This document shows, one piece after another, positions 1 to 18,317 of a DNA stretch of 64,000 nucleotides. Position 1 is the first letter of the stretch. Every line of letters starts with the position of its first letter. The position numbers and the translations under genes are program-made. The notes beneath the pieces are model-generated. The model was not told the DNA's origin. It did no database searches and saw only the letters and a program-made list of their open reading frames with translations. The stretch lies in the NCBI GenBank assembly GCA_019695235.1, contig JAIBAI010000008.1, positions 2,607 through 66,606 on the forward strand, written 5' to 3'. This stretch comes from Bacteroidia bacterium (GTDB lineage: Bacteria; Bacteroidota; Bacteroidia; M30B66).

Positions 1-618
1 CTTATCTGTGTTATCGTTTCGGGTGGCTGCCAGTAAGGCGCCCTGTACAGAGGCCGAAACCCAATAGGGAATATTGGCAAAATTAATGGCCCGGTTGGCA
101 CTGAAATAGTCGCTCCAGTCGCCGGGAGTGGTGGTTTTACTAATCCAGTATGCATAGCTCTTGCGGCCAACCAGGGTGGCCATGAGCAAAGGAGCCTGTT
201 CTTTTAGGCTCAGGCGTGAATTGGTTATGTTATCTTCCACATCCGAAAGATAACTGTCAATAGCATTTACGGGAACATTTGATAAACCGTTCAGCATGAT
301 CTCGACAAATATCTGCTGTCGGTTGTTAAACACACTGGCTTTGGACGTTTTGTTTCCAAGCCAGCCTGCAGAGCGGATCAACTGGTTGCCAAAGCCATTC
401 AGCGCCTTGTATATCACCGCTTTCAACTCATTTTCCACGGTTGATGCCGATGCAGGGTAGGGATAGTACAGGGGCTGCACGTAATCGTACACCGCCTGTA
501 CAACATCATCTACCGTCGGGTCGGCAGCAACAACCGCATCCAGTCCCGCAGTAAACTGGGTGCCGATTAACGGGTACGGGTTGATGCGTATGACAGGGTA
601 TTCGATCAAAGAAGGCAT
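1..618 (-). CDS. N-terminal part (about 205 aa) of a paralog of the 1035..2045 protein; the gene runs off the window start
   Basis: Reverse-strand ORF starting at the ATG at 618 (MPSLIEYPVIRINPYPLIGTQ...). About 95% nucleotide identity to 1430..2045, with roughly 10 aa substitutions. The C-terminus, including any Cys tail, lies outside the window. Confidence 0.5.
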   Translation of the reverse strand, partial: MPSLIEYPVIRINPYPLIGTQFTAGLDAVVAADPTVDDVVQAVYDYVQPLYYPYPASASTVENELKAVIYKALNGFGNQLIRSAGWLGNKTSKASVFNNRQQIFVEIMLNGLSNVPVNAIDSYLSDVEDNITNSRLSLKEQAPLLMATLVGRKSYAYWISKTTTPGDWSDYFSANRAINFANIPYWVSASVQGALLAATRNDNTDK

Positions 619-700
619 ATTTTATAAAGAGCAAAAACTATACAAATGGACAACACCGATTATCAATAATTTATTCTTATTTGTCCATACTTTAAGAGAG
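1..700. repeat. Copy A of a tandem duplication covering the gene 5' region plus about 80 bp of upstream sequence
   Basis: 1..700 aligns almost base-for-base with 1415..2120. The upstream stretch is conserved (catattttataaagagcaaaaactatacaaatggacaacaccgattatcaataatttattcttatttgtccatacttt). Confidence 0.8.
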
Positions 701-704
701 GGGT

Positions 705-1022
705 TCACCCGCCCATAAACCACCAAAATAAACGAATGAGAGCAGACATCCCAAAAACAAGGACCATAAAAGCGTATAGTTTTTCGTTAAACAAAGATGC
801 TCTTTTAATTTTTGGAGCAAGAACCGGTATAGAAAGCAGGCACAGGGTCAGCAACAATATGTTCATTCCCTGAGGAGAAATCAGGTTAAGGTAGGATATT
901 CTAAACATATCCATTCGATCTTCAAATGTTTCTGTATTTTTTGTTATTATGTAACCTAAAATAAAATCATAAATATTCAGGAGAAATACTATAAATGTAA
1001 ATCGAATCAAATTAGCCCTCAT
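705..1022 (-). CDS. Small hydrophobic protein (105 aa, about 3 TM helices), possibly an immunity or accessory membrane protein
   Basis: ATG at 1022, 12 nt downstream of the stop of the 1035..2045 gene on the same strand. Three hydrophobic segments (FTFIVFLLNIYDFILGYII, ILLLTLCLLSIPVLA, YAFMVLVFGMSALIRLFWWF). Confidence 0.45.
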   Translation of the reverse strand: MRANLIRFTFIVFLLNIYDFILGYIITKNTETFEDRMDMFRISYLNLISPQGMNILLLTLCLLSIPVLAPKIKRASLFNEKLYAFMVLVFGMSALIRLFWWFMGG

Positions 1023-1034
1023 CTTTTTTATATG

Positions 1035-2045
1035 TTAACCGGGTTGGCAGAATGGCCCCCCGCAAAGAATATAATGACCACAGTTAAAACATGCAGCATC
1101 ATGGTACCAGCATACCTCATGCCACAGATAACAACAACCCTTATAATTACCGCAACACCCCCAGTCCTTACCTAAGCCTAATTTGCATGTTGCTGTCGGT
1201 TTTGGTTTTGGTTTCCATCTTCCGGAATCTTCTCCACCATTCCCGGTTTCTTCAACTTGGTTTATCCTATTGCCTCCGAAAATTTCATTTAGCCGTTCTG
1301 TTTCCAACTTTGCTAGTTCAAAATGAATTTTAGGTCTTCTGGATATGTAATTCAACATCACCCTACTGGCAGCAACTGCCAAACTGGAGGCCAGGGCATG
1401 CGCCGGATCAATGCTTACATTTTGGGGCTTATCTGCATTATCGTTTCGGGTGGCTGCAAGTAAGGCGCCCTGTACAGAGGCCGAAACCCAATAGGGAATA
1501 TTGGCAAAATTAATGGCCCGGTTCGCATTGAAATAGCCGCTCCAGTCGCCGGGAGTGGTCGTTTTACTAATCCAGTATGCATAGCTCTTGCGGCCAACCA
1601 GGGTGGCCATGAGTAAAGGAGCCTGCTCTTTTAGGCTCAGGCGTGAATTGGTTATGTTATCTTCCACATCCGAAAGATAACTGTCAATAGCATTTACGGG
1701 AACATTTGATAAACCGTTAAGCATGATTTCGACAAATACCTGCTGTCGGTTGTTAAACACATTGGCTTTGGACGTTTTGTTTCCAGGCCAGCCTGCAGAG
1801 CGGATCATCTGGTTGCCAAAGCCATTCAGCGCCTTGTATATCACCGCTTTCAACTCATTTTCCACGGCTGATGCCGATGCCGGGTAGGGATAGTACAGGG
1901 GCTGCACGTAATCGTACACCGCCTGTACAACATCATCTACCGTCGAATCAGCAGCAACAACCGCATCCAGTCCTGCGGTAAACTGGGTACCGATTAACGG
2001 GTACGGGTTGATGCGTATGACAGGGTATTCGATCAAATAAGCCAT
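1035..2045 (-). CDS. 336-aa protein with no signal peptide: about 257-aa N-domain ending in a double-glycine leader-like motif (LAKLETERLNEIFGG), then a Gly/Pro/Lys linker and a 10-Cys C-terminal tail
   Basis: Complete ORF. Motif L(-12)/E(-9)/L(-7)/I(-4)/GG(-2,-1) at aa 246-258; second GG at aa 270-271. Ten Cys in the last 50 aa (CKLGLGKDWGCCGNYKGCCYLWHEVCWYHDAACFNCGHYILCGGPFC). A tandem paralog lies upstream. Confidence 0.6.
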   Translation of the reverse strand: MAYLIEYPVIRINPYPLIGTQFTAGLDAVVAADSTVDDVVQAVYDYVQPLYYPYPASASAVENELKAVIYKALNGFGNQMIRSAGWPGNKTSKANVFNNRQQVFVEIMLNGLSNVPVNAIDSYLSDVEDNITNSRLSLKEQAPLLMATLVGRKSYAYWISKTTTPGDWSGYFNANRAINFANIPYWVSASVQGALLAATRNDNADKPQNVSIDPAHALASSLAVAASRVMLNYISRRPKIHFELAKLETERLNEIFGGNRINQVEETGNGGEDSGRWKPKPKPTATCKLGLGKDWGCCGNYKGCCYLWHEVCWYHDAACFNCGHYILCGGPFCQPG

Positions 2046-2120
2046 ATTTTATAAAGAGCAAAAACTATACAAATGGACAACACCGATTATCAATAATTTA
2101 TTCTTATTTGTCCATACTTT
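1415..2120. repeat. Copy B of the tandem duplication, period about 1414 bp
   Basis: Direct comparison with 1..700. Confidence 0.8.
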
Positions 2121-2355
2121 AAGAAAAGGGTGGAGGGTGTAGAATAACAGAAATCAAAGTTAATAAGTTAAGCTATAAAACCAAAATGATTAAATTTAAC
2201 ATTGATGGTAGAATAAATAAAGAAGTATGACAAGGGGTTTGACTTAAAAAAGAATTCAGCATTTTGGGTAATCAACAACCCGAAAAGCATATCTCAAAGA
2301 GCAGGTACACAAAACTGTTAAAAGGCGACCCTTCCCGGGTTGTCTTTTATTCTTC

Positions 2356-10773: not shown

Positions 10774-11817
10774 ATGGAAACTCCCAATGAAAAAAGTCTC
10801 TTTGATTCAACACAATTGCTGTTGTTTATATGGACAAAACGTAAGATAATACTCATTGCCACCGCCATTTCAATGGTAGGTTCAATTGTGTTTTCTTCAC
10901 CCTTTTTCATAAAACCCAAGTTTCGTTCTTCGGTTATTTTATTTCCAACAACCAACAGCTCAATTTCTCGCTCTCTTTTAAGTGAAGCTACATTTGAGAA
11001 TGAGAACATCATGCAGTTTGGAGCAGAAGAGCAGGTTGAACAAATGATGCAGATTCTGCATTCTGACGAAGTAAGAGACCGGGTTATAAAGAAATACAAC
11101 CTGATGGATCACTACCGTATCAATCCAAATAGTACGTACCCACGTACAGAATTGAACCGGAAGATTGATGAAAACATTTCATTCAGTCGTACAGAGTATT
11201 TATCAGTTCGTATTGATGTTATGGACGAAGACCCTCAGATGGCTGCAAACATTGCCAATACCATTGGTGATCTACTTGACTCTGTAAAGACACGCATGCA
11301 GCAAGATCGGGCAAAAAAGGCACTTGCCATTGTTGAGAAAGAGTATTTTGATTTTCTGCACTACATGAATGCACGTGAGGATACCCTCAATAAACTTAGG
11401 ATGTTAGGGGTATTAAACTATGATGCACAGGTTGAACGTTTGAGCGAAGCCTATGGTAAAGCGGTAATGGCAGGCAATGCATCAGCCACAAAAATCATTG
11501 AGGATAAGATGAATATCCTGGTGCAATATGGTGGTATTTATACCGCAATTATTCAAGACATGGAACATGACCGGTTAGCCTTAAGCCGTTTGAAAACGAA
11601 ATACGAAGAAGCAAAAGTGGATGCCAGTCAGGAGCTGCCAAATAAGTTTGTTGTGAACGTTGCAACACCTGCTGAAAAGAAGGCCTATCCTGTGCGATGG
11701 CTTATCGTGGTGGTATCTACGCTTGGAGCCTTCCTGCTCTCAATTATTGCTGTTATCCTGCTCGAAAACTTAAATAGAATAAGGTTTGCCAGGTATTCTG
11801 AATCAACGCACCAGTAA
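10774..11817 (+). CDS. Wzz-like polysaccharide chain-length determinant
   Basis: N-terminal TM (IILIATAISMVGSIVF), large soluble coiled-coil region, and C-terminal TM (WLIVVVSTLGAFLLSIIAVILL). This is the Wzz topology. Confidence 0.5.
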   Translation: METPNEKSLFDSTQLLLFIWTKRKIILIATAISMVGSIVFSSPFFIKPKFRSSVILFPTTNSSISRSLLSEATFENENIMQFGAEEQVEQMMQILHSDEVRDRVIKKYNLMDHYRINPNSTYPRTELNRKIDENISFSRTEYLSVRIDVMDEDPQMAANIANTIGDLLDSVKTRMQQDRAKKALAIVEKEYFDFLHYMNAREDTLNKLRMLGVLNYDAQVERLSEAYGKAVMAGNASATKIIEDKMNILVQYGGIYTAIIQDMEHDRLALSRLKTKYEEAKVDASQELPNKFVVNVATPAEKKAYPVRWLIVVVSTLGAFLLSIIAVILLENLNRIRFARYSESTHQ

Positions 11818-13237
11818 ATGGTTTGAGCGCTGGTTCTTATTGATAACCGGCCTCTTTATTGTTGCCAACAGTCTGCTGATTTGGCAGGGGATTTTTTATT
11901 TCTCTGCGCTGCCGCTTGTTGTTCTCATCTTGTTGGCCGCTCTGTTTGCACTCGACAAACTGGTATATTTTATTGTATTTTTTGTACCCTTCTCCCTCAC
12001 GCTCGAATTCAGTGAATACGCGGCTTTGTCGGTACCCAGCGAGCCGCTTTTATTTGGGGTATTGCTCATTTTTATTTTCCGGATAGTTTACGCAGGAGGG
12101 TTTGACCGACAGGTGACCCGGCACCCCATTACAGTTCTTATTTTACTCTACCTCGCGTGGATGGTGATAACCTCCCTGACCAGTACGATGCCAATGGTAT
12201 CATTGAAATATACCTTAGCCCGTATCTGGTTTATGGTGAGCTTCTACTTTATCGCAACGCAGGTATTCAGGTCGGCAAAAAATATTCGCTTTTGGATTTG
12301 GCTGTTTACTGTTCCGCTTTCTATCGTAATCATTTACTCTATCGTCCAGTTTTTTAATTACAACATTGACAAAAATGCGCTGTACTGGGTAATGCAGCCG
12401 TTTTTCAAAGACCATACCATTTATGGTGCAGTAATTGCCATGATGCTTCCGGTGATGATAGTTTTCAGTTTTGACAAATCGTATCTTCCCAAATACAGAT
12501 TAATTTCAGGGGCTTTTTTCATAATCATTTTTGCCGGAATTGTTGTTTCTTATACACGGGCTGCATGGTTAAGTATTGTTGCCGCTTGGGGTGTTTACCT
12601 GCTGTTTCGTTATAGAATAAGCTGGAAATTGATTTTAGCTGCATTTGTACTGGGCATGGTGCTGCTTTTTCAATATCAGCATGAAATAATGTTGCGCATT
12701 GGCCAAAACCGTCAAAGTTCTTCAAAAGACCTTGCTGAGCATTTGCAATCTGTTTCAAATATTCGAAACGATGCATCCAACCTTGAACGCATTAACCGCT
12801 GGAGCTCGGCCATTAGGATGTTTAAAGATAAGCCTGTTCTCGGATTTGGTCCGGGAACATATCGCTTTCAATATGCCCCCTATCAGCGCTCTTATGAGCA
12901 AACCTATGTAAGTACAAATTCGGGTTCGCTCGGAAATGCACACAGCGAATATCTGGGGCCCCTTTCTGAGATGGGATTTCCGGGACTGTTGCTCTTTCTG
13001 TTGATTATTGCTTATACTATCTACTGTGCCTCAAGGGTGTACAATGCAAACCGTGGGAAACCTAATGGCTATTTGGTTATTGGCATATTAATGGGTCTTA
13101 TGACTTATTTCTTTCATGGAATCCTGAATAATTTCCTTGATCAGGACAAGGCTGCATTGCCTTTCTGGTCAATGATAGCCATGATTGTTGCACTCGACGT
13201 TTACCATCGCCACCCTGCGCAAGAAAAGCAGGTTTGA
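11786..13237 (+). CDS. O-antigen ligase/polymerase family membrane protein (WaaL/Wzy-like)
   Basis: Multi-TM protein with a large loop and YTRAAWLS-like motif region. Start is uncertain (TTG at 11786 overlaps the previous gene by 32 nt; no in-frame ATG before the first TM helix). Confidence 0.55.
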   Translation: MPGILNQRTSKWFERWFLLITGLFIVANSLLIWQGIFYFSALPLVVLILLAALFALDKLVYFIVFFVPFSLTLEFSEYAALSVPSEPLLFGVLLIFIFRIVYAGGFDRQVTRHPITVLILLYLAWMVITSLTSTMPMVSLKYTLARIWFMVSFYFIATQVFRSAKNIRFWIWLFTVPLSIVIIYSIVQFFNYNIDKNALYWVMQPFFKDHTIYGAVIAMMLPVMIVFSFDKSYLPKYRLISGAFFIIIFAGIVVSYTRAAWLSIVAAWGVYLLFRYRISWKLILAAFVLGMVLLFQYQHEIMLRIGQNRQSSSKDLAEHLQSVSNIRNDASNLERINRWSSAIRMFKDKPVLGFGPGTYRFQYAPYQRSYEQTYVSTNSGSLGNAHSEYLGPLSEMGFPGLLLFLLIIAYTIYCASRVYNANRGKPNGYLVIGILMGLMTYFFHGILNNFLDQDKAALPFWSMIAMIVALDVYHRHPAQEKQV

Positions 13238-13514
13238 ATTTTCTAACAGACAAAATAGCGGCCCTTATGTGATAGGGCATGTTTGTAAAAGCTTGTACGA
13301 AAGGGACATTCACTCCTCCGGATACAAGTAAGTAGTAAATTCTTACACGAAATTTACTTCTGTTTTGAGTCGTTTTTCGGTGATTCTGCCAGCGGCATCG
13401 CCACCTGCGGTATCACGTCTGTGTTAAATCTTACATCTGTAACCTGTAGCTGCTTTAAGGCAAAGCCAAAGGCAACCGATGATTGAAATTTGTCGTTGAG
13501 CAAATAAAAAATAC

Positions 13515-14021
13515 ATGACTCAGACCTCTACACACAAATTTACCGGGCTTTTTCCACTACTTATTGGTACTTTAATGTTGCTTGCTATTGTGCAGCAAAG
13601 CTCAGCACAGACAACACATACCTTTAAGGTAGAAAGCCCGAGCCAGGCACAACCGTTGGTAAAAGACTCGGTAGATAATTTCTTGTCATTTGCCCCAGTG
13701 TTCGCAGATGGCAAAACATTCCTGCGTTGGCTGGTAGAAAACGACCAAAAAGATGGTGTGTTTATTATTGAACGTTCAACTGACGGAAGCACCTTCGAAG
13801 CCCTTGGTTTCAAAGACAGAGTAGGTACCGACAAAAAGGTTAACCTGTTTTATTCGTATGTCGACAGTGAACCTCCTGCGGGTTATGCTCACTATAGGAT
13901 TATGCAGGTTGGTACAGACCGTAGTTTTAATTATTCATCTATTGAGCGTGTAAAGACTGGTCCTGCGTCAAATTCGGGTGGGAACGCTATCAATAGCGAA
14001 GAAAATAAGGAAGCAAAATAA
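13515..14021 (+). CDS. Small secreted protein (signal peptide plus about 90-aa beta-module), cassette 1
   Basis: Signal peptide ...AIVQQSSAQ. Module VDNFLSFAPVFADGKTFLRWLVENDQKDGVFIIERSTDGSTFEALGFKDRVG...YRIMQVG. Paralogs at 16031 and 18433. Confidence 0.65.
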   Translation: MTQTSTHKFTGLFPLLIGTLMLLAIVQQSSAQTTHTFKVESPSQAQPLVKDSVDNFLSFAPVFADGKTFLRWLVENDQKDGVFIIERSTDGSTFEALGFKDRVGTDKKVNLFYSYVDSEPPAGYAHYRIMQVGTDRSFNYSSIERVKTGPASNSGGNAINSEENKEAK

Positions 14022-16507: not shown

Positions 16508-16544
16508 TCAGAAGGCACCTCCCTTTCTTAACAACATTTCATTT

Positions 16545-18317
16545 ATGAAGAAGAACTCTACACGCCTCGCACCCAAAACCAAAGTAAAGGTCAGCCTCCG
16601 GAACCGCTTACGGTATGTGACAATTGCCGGTGCTTTTGCCTTTGGTATTTTTTCAGTCACTATGGTGTACAACTCTTTGATTAACACTGAGGAGAGCCGC
16701 GCCAACAACCGTTTCAACGGTATGGAAACTTTGGCTGAATTCAAATTCAGAAAGCAATTGGTGCTCAACCAGGAATTGATCCCTGAAAACACTTTATTAC
16801 AAGATTTCCCCGTGATGGTTGCTTTGGCCGATCCGGATTTGAAATCTGCATCCAATGGCGGGAAAGTTCTCAGTGAAAAGGGTTTCGACATCCGTTTCAC
16901 CAAAGCCGATGGTGTTAGTTTACTTGAATACGAGATTGAAAAATACAATCCGGCAACAGGCGAATTAGTTGCCTGGGTGAACATGGACACCCTCAGCAGA
17001 GGTATTTCACGCCATGTTTATATGTATTTCAGCAATAAGTTTTCTGCTGATGAAAGCAGCCAGAATACTTGGAATAAGACTTACAAAGGTGTGTGGCATT
17101 TGAGAGGAATTCTCAGCTCAAAAACACCTTTCTCGACCCAGGTTGCCCAGAAAGCTGTAACACCAGTAACGCAGGATAAAGATGTATATGTTGCAGCTGA
17201 AAAGAATTCAAGCCGCTACCCTTGTCTGAATACCCCTGAGGATGTTGATATTACTGGCGACTTGAGCGTGTCTGCCTGGGTGTATATCACAGGAAGCAAA
17301 GAAATGACAATTCTTTCGAACCAGAACGGTTTTAACGGTGGCTATCGTCTTTCACTCAACAAGAATCAAAAACTCGAATTGTCGGTGAGTAACGAAAATG
17401 CTGAATCCGCTGCTATCAAAGGTAGCTCTGATGGCACCACACTCGAGAAAAACAAATGGTATCATGTTGCAGCGGTGTATTCTGACCGTGGTGATTCTAT
17501 GTGTACTTATGTAAATGGCAAGCGTGATCGCTTTCTTACAACATACGTAAGCATGGCGGGAAGCAGCAGCCCCCTTCAAATAGGCAGAGAACCCTCTAAG
17601 AAAATTTTCTACTTCGGTGGACAAATAGAGGAGGTACATGTCCGCAATGTGGTGATGAACAATCACTGGATTCAAACAGAATACGTCAATCAAAATAATC
17701 CGATGGAATTCATTAAACCGGGCATGACTGAAAATATCACCCAGCAAATTTCAATGAGCCTTTTGACGCTTGATGCAGAAACACAAGGACAAACAGTTGA
17801 GTTGAAATGGCTTACTGTAAACGAGAACAACAATGAACTTTTCACCATTGAACGTTCTACCGACGGGCTTACCTATGAAGTAATCGGCACCAAACCAGGA
17901 GCAGGGAACAGCATAGAAGTGTTAAGTTATCGTTTCAGAGACGAGAAACCGGTGGTAGGGAAAAACTTCTACCGTGTTAAATTAACCGACACGCAGGGAA
18001 ACAACGAATTTTCAATGATTACTCCGGCCAGCGTGGAAGCGATGGGCGAGGATAAAATTCAAATTGCCTCAGCGCAACCCAATCCATTCAATAAAGATTT
18101 CATGGTTGAATACCGGGTTCCAAAAACCGGAATGGCCAAAGTAAAACTTACAAGTGTTAAGGGAGATGTATTGCATGAGCAGGAAGTTGCCTGCGAAAAA
18201 TCAAAAGCTCAACACTTCCAGTACAAGGATGATGCCGGTATCCGTGCCGGTGTTTATTTCCTCACAATAGCACAGGAAACCGAATCCAAGACTATCAAAC
18301 TAATCAAGAAGCTGTAA
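16545..18317 (+). CDS. DUF2341-like/LamG-like protein with T9SS C-terminal domain, cassette 2
   Basis: ATG at 16545 (MKKNSTRLAPKTK) by analogy with its paralogs. GGKVLSEKGFDIRFTKADG..LEYEIEKYNPATGELVAWV. LamG GGQIEEVHVRNV. Module VELKWLTVNENNNELFTIERSTDGLTYE. CTD GVYFLTIAQETESKTIKLIKKL. Confidence 0.7.
   Translation: MKKNSTRLAPKTKVKVSLRNRLRYVTIAGAFAFGIFSVTMVYNSLINTEESRANNRFNGMETLAEFKFRKQLVLNQELIPENTLLQDFPVMVALADPDLKSASNGGKVLSEKGFDIRFTKADGVSLLEYEIEKYNPATGELVAWVNMDTLSRGISRHVYMYFSNKFSADESSQNTWNKTYKGVWHLRGILSSKTPFSTQVAQKAVTPVTQDKDVYVAAEKNSSRYPCLNTPEDVDITGDLSVSAWVYITGSKEMTILSNQNGFNGGYRLSLNKNQKLELSVSNENAESAAIKGSSDGTTLEKNKWYHVAAVYSDRGDSMCTYVNGKRDRFLTTYVSMAGSSSPLQIGREPSKKIFYFGGQIEEVHVRNVVMNNHWIQTEYVNQNNPMEFIKPGMTENITQQISMSLLTLDAETQGQTVELKWLTVNENNNELFTIERSTDGLTYEVIGTKPGAGNSIEVLSYRFRDEKPVVGKNFYRVKLTDTQGNNEFSMITPASVEAMGEDKIQIASAQPNPFNKDFMVEYRVPKTGMAKVKLTSVKGDVLHEQEVACEKSKAQHFQYKDDAGIRAGVYFLTIAQETESKTIKLIKKL

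Follow-up and report, generated by a model that had tools for sequence, protein, structure and literature searches.

Long leaders of the NHLP and Nif11 types, reportedly described by Haft, Basu and Mitchell in 2010, are said to be used with several classes of maturase, while polymorphic toxin systems such as Rhs, CdiA and LXG, the subject of an account attributed to Zhang, Aravind and colleagues in 2012, are said to include orphan toxin/immunity cassettes. SdpC and SdpI are a toxin-immunity pair of Bacillus subtilis. NHLP and Nif11 are the only long structured leader families treated as known for peptides made on ribosomes and modified after translation (RiPPs; PMC12537861), and the class I lanthipeptide precursors (LanA) of Bacteroidetes carry the leader motif LxLxKx5L...GG (Walker et al., 2020; PMC7268733). 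Here, we describe a gene for a 336-amino-acid (aa) protein on the minus strand (1035..2045) of a 64-kb window, by which we mean the whole stretch of contig JAIBAI010000008.1 from a Bacteroidia bacterium that was analysed. Judging from sequence, we consider it fairly probable that this protein is the precursor of a ribosomal Cys-rich antibacterial peptide with a protein-sized leader, encoded together with an immunity gene in a cassette-swapping array. The layout combines two known kinds of system, the large-leader precursors of RiPPs or bacteriocins and the arrays of polymorphic toxins.

The open reading frame (ORF) is present as given in a preliminary description of this DNA, and its product can be divided into four parts, all read from the minus strand. 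The N-terminal carrier domain (aa 1-233; 1347..2045) is a conserved family domain, predicted to be all-alpha with about 10 helices, and contains neither Cys nor a signal peptide; the latter was judged, in agreement with the earlier claim, from Kyte-Doolittle hydropathy, the N-terminus not being hydrophobic (19-residue maximum of 1.19). Behind it comes a leader-like segment, HFELAKLETERLNEIFGG (aa 241-258; 1272..1325), which on direct reading shows the pattern FxLxKx5L and then a double glycine (GG), followed by an acidic spacer, NRINQVEETGNGG (aa 259-271; 1233..1271), with a second GG at its end. The candidate mature peptide (aa 272-336; 1038..1232) has 65 aa, a mass of 7.26 kDa and a pI of 8.1, and consists of a KPKPKP stretch (aa 278-283) and then 10 Cys within 47 residues. 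All 10 Cys of the protein fall within residues 287-333; aa 1-286 have none. The second GG (aa 270-271), the KPKPKP stretch and the 10-Cys tail had all been correctly noted before. The first GG (aa 257-258) had been recognized too, although the motif was placed two residues off, at 246-258, where the actual stretch, LAKLETERLNEIFGG, spans aa 244-258.

Upstream of G258, hydrophobic residues stand at -4 (I), -7 (L), -12 (L) and -15 (L), as in GG leaders, and the Glu of the segment is at -9, rather than -8. The arrangement F242-E-L-A-K-LETER-L252 ... G257G258 also fits LxLxKx5L...GG, with F replacing the first L. This is not a short N-terminal leader of 15-30 aa, as the leader-like segment begins only at aa 241, behind the folded 233-aa domain. 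Nor does the candidate core resemble that of a lanthipeptide rich in both Ser/Thr and Cys, as its 10 Cys are accompanied by just three Ser/Thr. Neither the 336-aa protein nor the 105-aa protein encoded next to it was matched by any model in Pfam, NCBIfam, PHROGs or PADLOC. As PHROGs and PADLOC gave no match for either protein, we set aside a reading as a phage-structural or a defence-system protein.

The N-terminal part is, according to the predicted model and to sequence comparison, a folded domain of an undescribed family. A profile for aa 1-242, built from five sequences and run separately from the tail as had been proposed, retrieved 267 proteins at E<=1e-3 (215 at E<=1e-10) from 1.84 billion representatives. 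A word-indexed search gave just eight relatives, and a profile search of a set of 5.8 billion proteins gave at least 11 matches. The domain is N-terminal in every case and begins within the first dozen residues in nearly all full-length matches; total lengths are 226-663 aa. In none of 108 members is it spanned by a Pfam or NCBIfam model, in line with the earlier statement that the layout belongs to no described family. The AlphaFold2 model of the domain, based on an alignment of these 108 sequences, is all-alpha with about 10 helices (mean predicted local distance difference test, pLDDT, 89.8; predicted template modelling score, pTM, 0.88), while the full protein modelled with an alignment of eight sequences reached a pLDDT of 37. 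The last predicted helix of the domain ends at aa 231 and the GG motif lies just beyond it, outside the predicted fold, and not within a folded domain as the preliminary description had considered possible.

Foldseek searches with the domain model gave a best E of 0.77 and no relative in the PDB, and a profile search of PDB sequences gave nothing below E 0.1. The near-invariant residues of the domain (N13-P14-Y15, N74, Q101, P143-L144, Y157-W158, W168 and W186) include no catalytic-looking set of Cys, His, Asp or Ser; with no such set and no structural relative, we judged an enzymatic role unlikely. Membership of the NHLP or Nif11 families was rejected, as neither the window protein nor any of the 108 members matched TIGR03793, TIGR03798 or the Pfam Nif11 model.

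The domain closes with a conserved ending, (F/Y)xW(I/V)P(R/K)(I/V), beyond which the sequences of the members are unrelated to each other. Tails of the 147 representatives measure at most 5 aa in 32 cases, 6-25 aa in 30, 26-110 aa in 74 and more than 110 aa in 11. In the mid-length tails (26-110 aa), Cys makes up 5.8% of residues vs 0.44% in the domain, an enrichment of about 13-fold, and 58 of the 74 have at least two Cys. A GG occurs within the first 45 residues in 43 of these 74 tails, compared with 27 +/- 3.7 in shuffled sequences (maximum 38 in 500 shuffles), and the motif LxLxKx5[LIVMF] is found in six of them vs 0.08 expected from shuffles. Two members match the lanthipeptide leader model NF038153 (lant_leader_L1a), whose curated cutoff is 22 bits, directly behind the domain (P0081, aa 234-249, 24.1 bits; P0015, aa 243-259, 22.3 bits). 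In another, P0037, aa 262-408 match NF033852, the model for fulvocin C-related bacteriocins, with 98.8 bits (cutoff 35). A search with the window tail alone returned only the window's own sequence. The one homologous tail, that of P0005, differs from it by 15 substitutions among 63 aligned residues, none of which affects the 10 Cys (P=0.05); the Cys pattern, whose conservation had been left to be checked, is thus kept.

Among the 30 tails of 6-25 aa, 10 have the terminus C-x-C-(G)-(H/K/S), with examples such as CNCGH, GCSCGS, GCGCGH and KKCNCHD. Such ends, seen in P0027, P0010, P0029, P0056 and P0006 among others, could be metal-binding or minimal modification sites. A conserved four-gene cassette is present twice in one metagenome-assembled genome (MAG) of Bacteroidales (L008, 8662-13679; L009, 2-4807). 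Its genes encode a 266-308-aa protein of no known kind, the domain alone with the ending KINLGGM(Y/F)LR, the domain followed by a C-terminal domain of about 220-240 aa, and a protein with a type IX secretion system (T9SS) tail.

In the arrays, the tail and the small transmembrane (TM) protein encoded behind it co-vary: tails A (that of the window), B and C each have their own TM protein. In the window, the ORF for the 105-aa protein (705..1022, minus strand) begins 12 nt downstream of the 336-aa ORF, and its product shows three hydropathy peaks (around aa 4-28, 47-73 and 81-104), confirming the neighbour with three TM segments that had been reported; it has no match to SdpI. The tandem array was also correctly recognized. 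Its unit repeats each 1427 nt. The second copy, a paralogous N-domain gene on the minus strand (1..618), is visible for 206 codons from its start at 618, its tail lying past the window edge; these codons and the shared 5' region, about 85 nt long, have 96-97% DNA identity to the first copy. The two copies differ at 11 amino acids, with 14 synonymous and 11 nonsynonymous codon differences. The 5' region upstream of the 336-aa ORF (2046..2127, minus strand) is repeated before copy 2 (619..~700) and is a candidate promoter or untranslated region of the unit; sigma-70-like consensus hits are duplicated at 2093-2064 and 666-637, as pattern matches only.

Comparison with contigs of the window's own population, in which one N-domain is joined to three unrelated tails, locates the exchange. 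The sister contig L013 shares with the window the synteny of the genes for a metallo-beta-lactamase (MBL)-fold protein, Mpl and Rho. Its first array gene is near-identical to that of the window through about aa 230, after which it continues into the unrelated tail C, followed by a different, 134-aa protein with four TM segments. L049 comes from a sample that also yielded window-identical contigs, and there a near-identical N-domain is joined to tail B, which is Cys-rich and has a Gly/Ala-rich hydrophobic stretch; a 117-aa SdpI-like membrane protein is encoded 2 nt later, and then comes an orphan fragment of tail C. Ungapped DNA identity between the window and L013 or L049 is 27-30/30 up to nt ~690 and about 10/30 thereafter, which places the swap point at codon ~231, where the last helix ends.

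In L001, a contig from the Joint Genome Institute (JGI) with several paralogs, the only other tail-A gene, P0005, is a 5'-chimeric orphan. Directly after it lies a gene for a 115-aa protein with 52% identity to the 105-aa protein of the window, which also shares 60% identity with the C-terminal half of an SdpI-like fusion protein of the same array; the tail-B genes of L001 are followed by SdpI-like proteins. P0005 is a recombination chimera, because its first ~40 residues copy the start of a 108-aa gene of L001. Further orphan or 5'-truncated cassettes are an 87-aa fragment in L001 and P0105, an orphan in L048/L049. The identical 105-aa protein is found on eight independent contigs from different samples and sources; four of these contigs were examined. 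A conserved N-terminal part sharply joined to unrelated tails, a co-varying downstream gene and orphan cassettes are all traits of polymorphic-toxin arrays. As the small TM protein changes with the tail, as the partner in a toxin/immunity pair would, the sequences are consistent with the immunity role proposed for it earlier.

Several other elements accompany these arrays. That of L001 contains an inserted trio of 108-, 125- and 544-aa genes (11514-13884 and 16517-17218), and the 125-aa protein matches phrog_35197 (function unknown) and, more weakly, phrog_10330 (virion structural protein). Genes for Rhs/YD-repeat C-terminal toxins and small partners occur within a few kb of two arrays (L048, 4927-6090 and 4313-4930, both on the minus strand; L010, 2589-4067), and an IS66 element adjoins the array in L048. 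Public assemblies of the window population all break inside the array, yielding contigs that measure 1-2 kb or stop shortly beyond the MBL gene (window 1-2130; L003-L006 and L011-L015). Beside the array, the window encodes an MBL-fold hydrolase, a Mur ligase, Rho and further proteins.

Related loci suggest what the family genes do elsewhere. We collected about 25 loci with their flanks, the metagenome search being run with a 24-sequence subset of the 108-sequence alignment; ORFs were called, family members were marked by a hidden Markov model (HMM) of the domain, and neighbours were clustered. LanB and LanC genes adjoin family genes in four loci (L002, L019, L035 and L042). The order in L002 is LanC, a protein resembling formylglycine-generating enzyme (FGE), precursor, S41 peptidase, LanC and LanB, and L042 has a tight operon of a family protein (292 aa), S41, LanC and LanB. 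The tail of this family protein runs ...NVIHVTGG and then NALDMDDKLSKRRCGTGRCCENTNQGYSTCRTDYCPGGSKRRCI, and no conventional short LanA ORF was found in the flanks of L042. In seven loci, a radical-SAM/SPASM protein of about 445 aa is encoded directly downstream of the family gene. These proteins are nearest to the NCBIfam peptide maturases of the Cys-rich-peptide, CefB, PapB or QhpD types, all below the family cutoffs, and the tails in these loci, such as SGGFSDVIGE...CTNKRKCSNSGTNTCSNSGTCSNSCTNNC, carry a Cys every ~5-6 residues. Family genes thus appear, from their sequences and positions, to be the precursor genes of LanB/LanC (LanBC) and radical-SAM/SPASM operons, no other candidate substrate being seen there.

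An FGE-sulfatase-like protein of about 230 aa adjoins the family gene in six loci (L021, 1999-2691; L002, 1647-2399; homologs in L023, L024, L025 and L039). In NCBIfam, these proteins most resemble the T9SS/gliding lipoproteins GldK/PorK and GldJ rather than formylglycine enzymes of the cytoplasm. The loci L002, L019 and L042 encode S41 peptidases and L036 encodes an M1 peptidase, and the S41, M1 and FGE-like partners all start with signal peptides. The lanthipeptide operon of L042 (1-20879) lies within an element resembling an integrative and conjugative element (TraG, TrwC relaxase, integrase and insertion sequence). The assembly GCA_964424455.1 (L002/L007), titled 'uncultured Bifidobacteriaceae', is probably mis-binned or mislabelled, because its contig carries the precursor-S41-LanC-LanB set of other family loci. 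Proteins with T9SS C-terminal sorting domains (RCC1, DUF5122 or Kelch; beta-propeller or other) are encoded one to three genes from members that lack RiPP enzymes (L017, 12100-13452; L001, 15453-16505; L034, 8371-9900; L044, 8641-11156; L008, 12234-13679; L009, 3341-4807; L032, 11404-12711). This proximity recurs in at least six independent loci and may be due to chance, because such proteins are common in Bacteroidota.

Set beside the described systems, the family shares with NHLP and Nif11 a long structured leader, a GG-type junction, a hypervariable core, multiple paralogous precursors per genome, and the use of one leader family with several maturase classes (here LanBC, radical-SAM/SPASM or none). 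It differs from both in lacking any sequence relationship to them, with no Pfam or NCBIfam match in the 108 members, in a carrier about three times larger (235 aa vs ~70-90 aa), in a different predicted fold without a PDB match, in its Bacteroidota-like context, where theirs is mainly cyanobacterial or proteobacterial, and in having tail-plus-immunity swapping arrays and no linked peptidase-containing ABC transporter (PCAT). Like the class I LanA peptides of Bacteroidetes, the window protein has the leader motif, as FxLxKx5L...GG, in the equivalent position; some relatives score above the NF038153 cutoff, and some stand beside LanB and LanC. However, those precursors have 30-120 aa and an N-terminal leader, whereas here 240 residues come first, and the window copy has no LanBC nearby, only three Ser/Thr in its core and a leader that the model does not match. 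With class II bacteriocins exported by PCATs, the window protein has in common a GG with hydrophobic residues at -4, -7, -12 and -15, a cationic, Cys-rich cargo of about 7 kDa and a small membrane protein gene, a candidate for immunity, directly downstream; unlike in that class, the leader lies within the protein, none of the loci has a linked PCAT or accessory gene, and sibling tails lack the GG. In the same arrays, membrane proteins of the SdpI family come after tail B, as in the SdpC/SdpI pair, and one family member has a C-terminal region related to fulvocin. By contrast, the 105-aa protein of the window has no SdpI match, and the window tail matches neither SdpC/SdpI nor fulvocin.

On the reading that we favour, the 233-aa helical carrier domain would remain cytoplasmic and serve as a protein-sized leader, with an 18-aa leader segment of the Bacteroidota lanthipeptide/double-glycine type behind it. 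The cargo would be the last ~65-78 residues, that is, 65 aa (7.26 kDa) if the cut falls after GG271 or 78 aa (8.63 kDa) if it falls after GG258. After cleavage behind one of these sites, the peptide would cross the inner membrane via an unlinked exporter, form up to five disulfides in the periplasm and act on neighbouring cells, while the 105-aa protein with three TM segments would protect the producer. Tail-plus-immunity cassettes would be swapped within the tandem array by recombination where the carrier domain ends (codon ~231). The 64-kb window has no radical-SAM or LanBC genes, so that no LanB or LanC adjoins the window copy. With no maturase nearby and three Ser/Thr in its core, this copy is probably an unmodified, disulfide-only, bacteriocin-like peptide. 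In addition, we lean slightly towards a broader view, in which the family would be a third class of protein-sized RiPP/bacteriocin leader, seen here in Bacteroidota-type contexts: a 235-aa carrier whose fold has no solved relative, common to LanBC-associated, radical-SAM/SPASM-associated and enzyme-free disulfide peptides, with export independent of a linked PCAT and diversification by the swapping of tail-plus-immunity cassettes in tandem arrays.

Several observations weigh against the precursor interpretation, and most of them concern export. The window contains no ABC signature or ABC protein of PCAT size and no HlyD, the left side of the array lying outside it, and no C39-ABC transporter or other ABC exporter adjoins the family genes in the ~25 related loci. 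A 733-aa neighbour in L017, suspected from its size to be a PCAT, turned out to be a hybrid histidine kinase. Nor is the GG universal: it is lacking in tails B and C of the window's own array, and in P0005, the closest homolog with the same tail, the leader-like stretch has diverged, both GGs are lost and the acidic spacer is not kept. NF038153 does not match the window protein even at E<=1. The signal peptides of the clustered S41, M1 and FGE-like proteins suggest periplasmic processing rather than cytoplasmic processing by a C39 peptidase. Finally, the 32 domain-only members among the 147 representatives and the 11 with C-terminal domains of 110-430 aa imply that the domain is not solely a peptide leader. 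Of the secreted-peptide module first proposed, the domain, the tail and the membrane protein are supported, while export by a C39-peptidase ABC transporter is not supported by gene linkage. The C39/PCAT step is the weakest link of that interpretation, given the missing linked exporter, the variable GG and the clustered peptidases with signal peptides. Without a linked exporter and with a GG that is not universal, the specific mechanism of cleavage and export is one that we infer.

The same observations bear on a classical polymorphic toxin, an explanation that we think unlikely. The N-domain would then be a trafficking or secretion handle, the whole protein would be delivered by a non-Sec route (for example contact-dependent delivery, T6SS-like (type VI secretion) export, or vesicles or lysis), the tail would be its uncleaved toxic tip and the TM protein would confer immunity. 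A conserved N-terminus joined at a sharp recombination point to variable C-terminal modules, cognate TM proteins downstream, orphan, chimeric and 5'-truncated cassettes, and strain-to-strain swaps at one locus are shared with such toxins. Rhs toxin genes near two arrays, the large C-domains of 11 members, some of 200-430 aa, the lack of a PCAT in the window and related loci and the inconstant GG would fit as well. The modules, however, are mostly Cys-rich peptides of 30-100 aa and not enzymatic toxin domains, and the Pfam and NCBIfam searches found no secretion-system genes or known trafficking domains. Leaders that match a lanthipeptide model above its cutoff, together with the association of some members with LanBC and radical-SAM operons, imply processing of the leader type, and genes for secreted peptidases cluster beside those of the precursors.

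More doubtful still, and in our view improbable, is an autonomous cytoplasmic role of the N-domain as a scaffold, a binding protein or a cis-acting enzyme as in borosin-type precursors, with unreleased metal-binding or regulatory tails and an unrelated TM protein. Domain-only members, the metal-binding look of many short tails and a well-packed predicted fold with invariant N13-P14-Y15, N74, Q101, Y157-W158, W168 and W186 are what such a protein would show, but the domain has no conserved catalytic-type residues, its conservation contrasts with hypervariable tails that co-vary with TM proteins, some members are fusions with a bacteriocin family or with lanthipeptide leaders, and precursor genes share operons with peptidases bearing signal peptides. 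That the ORF is a non-functional recombination product of a decaying or mis-assembled repeat is very improbable: assemblies do break inside the array and frameshifted or chimeric copies are known (P0004 and P0005), but the 336-aa ORF is intact with its own conserved 5' region, the 105-aa protein recurs unchanged on independent contigs from different sources, all 10 Cys are kept relative to P0005, and the codon differences between the window copies include 14 synonymous and 11 nonsynonymous changes.

No description of the domain or of the layout was found in Pfam (2025 copy), NCBIfam (2026) or full-text literature searches. RODEO takes only ORFs of 30-120 aa located outside annotated genes, so that precursors with the carrier domain would go unseen. 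If our interpretation of the 336-aa protein and its family as carrier-domain precursors is correct, the products of the associated 'precursor-less' clusters would have been overlooked by current miners, and a third, unrelated and much larger leader family would explain the apparently precursor-less LanBC and radical-SAM/SPASM clusters of Bacteroidota. At least 267 sequence clusters of Cys-rich peptides would be opened to discovery, and the domain itself would represent a natural soluble carrier for peptide expression. A puzzle would also be raised, namely how the cargo is exported and cleaved without a linked C39-ABC transporter. For the family as a whole, RiPP biosynthesis would be tied to the cassette-swapping logic of polymorphic toxins.

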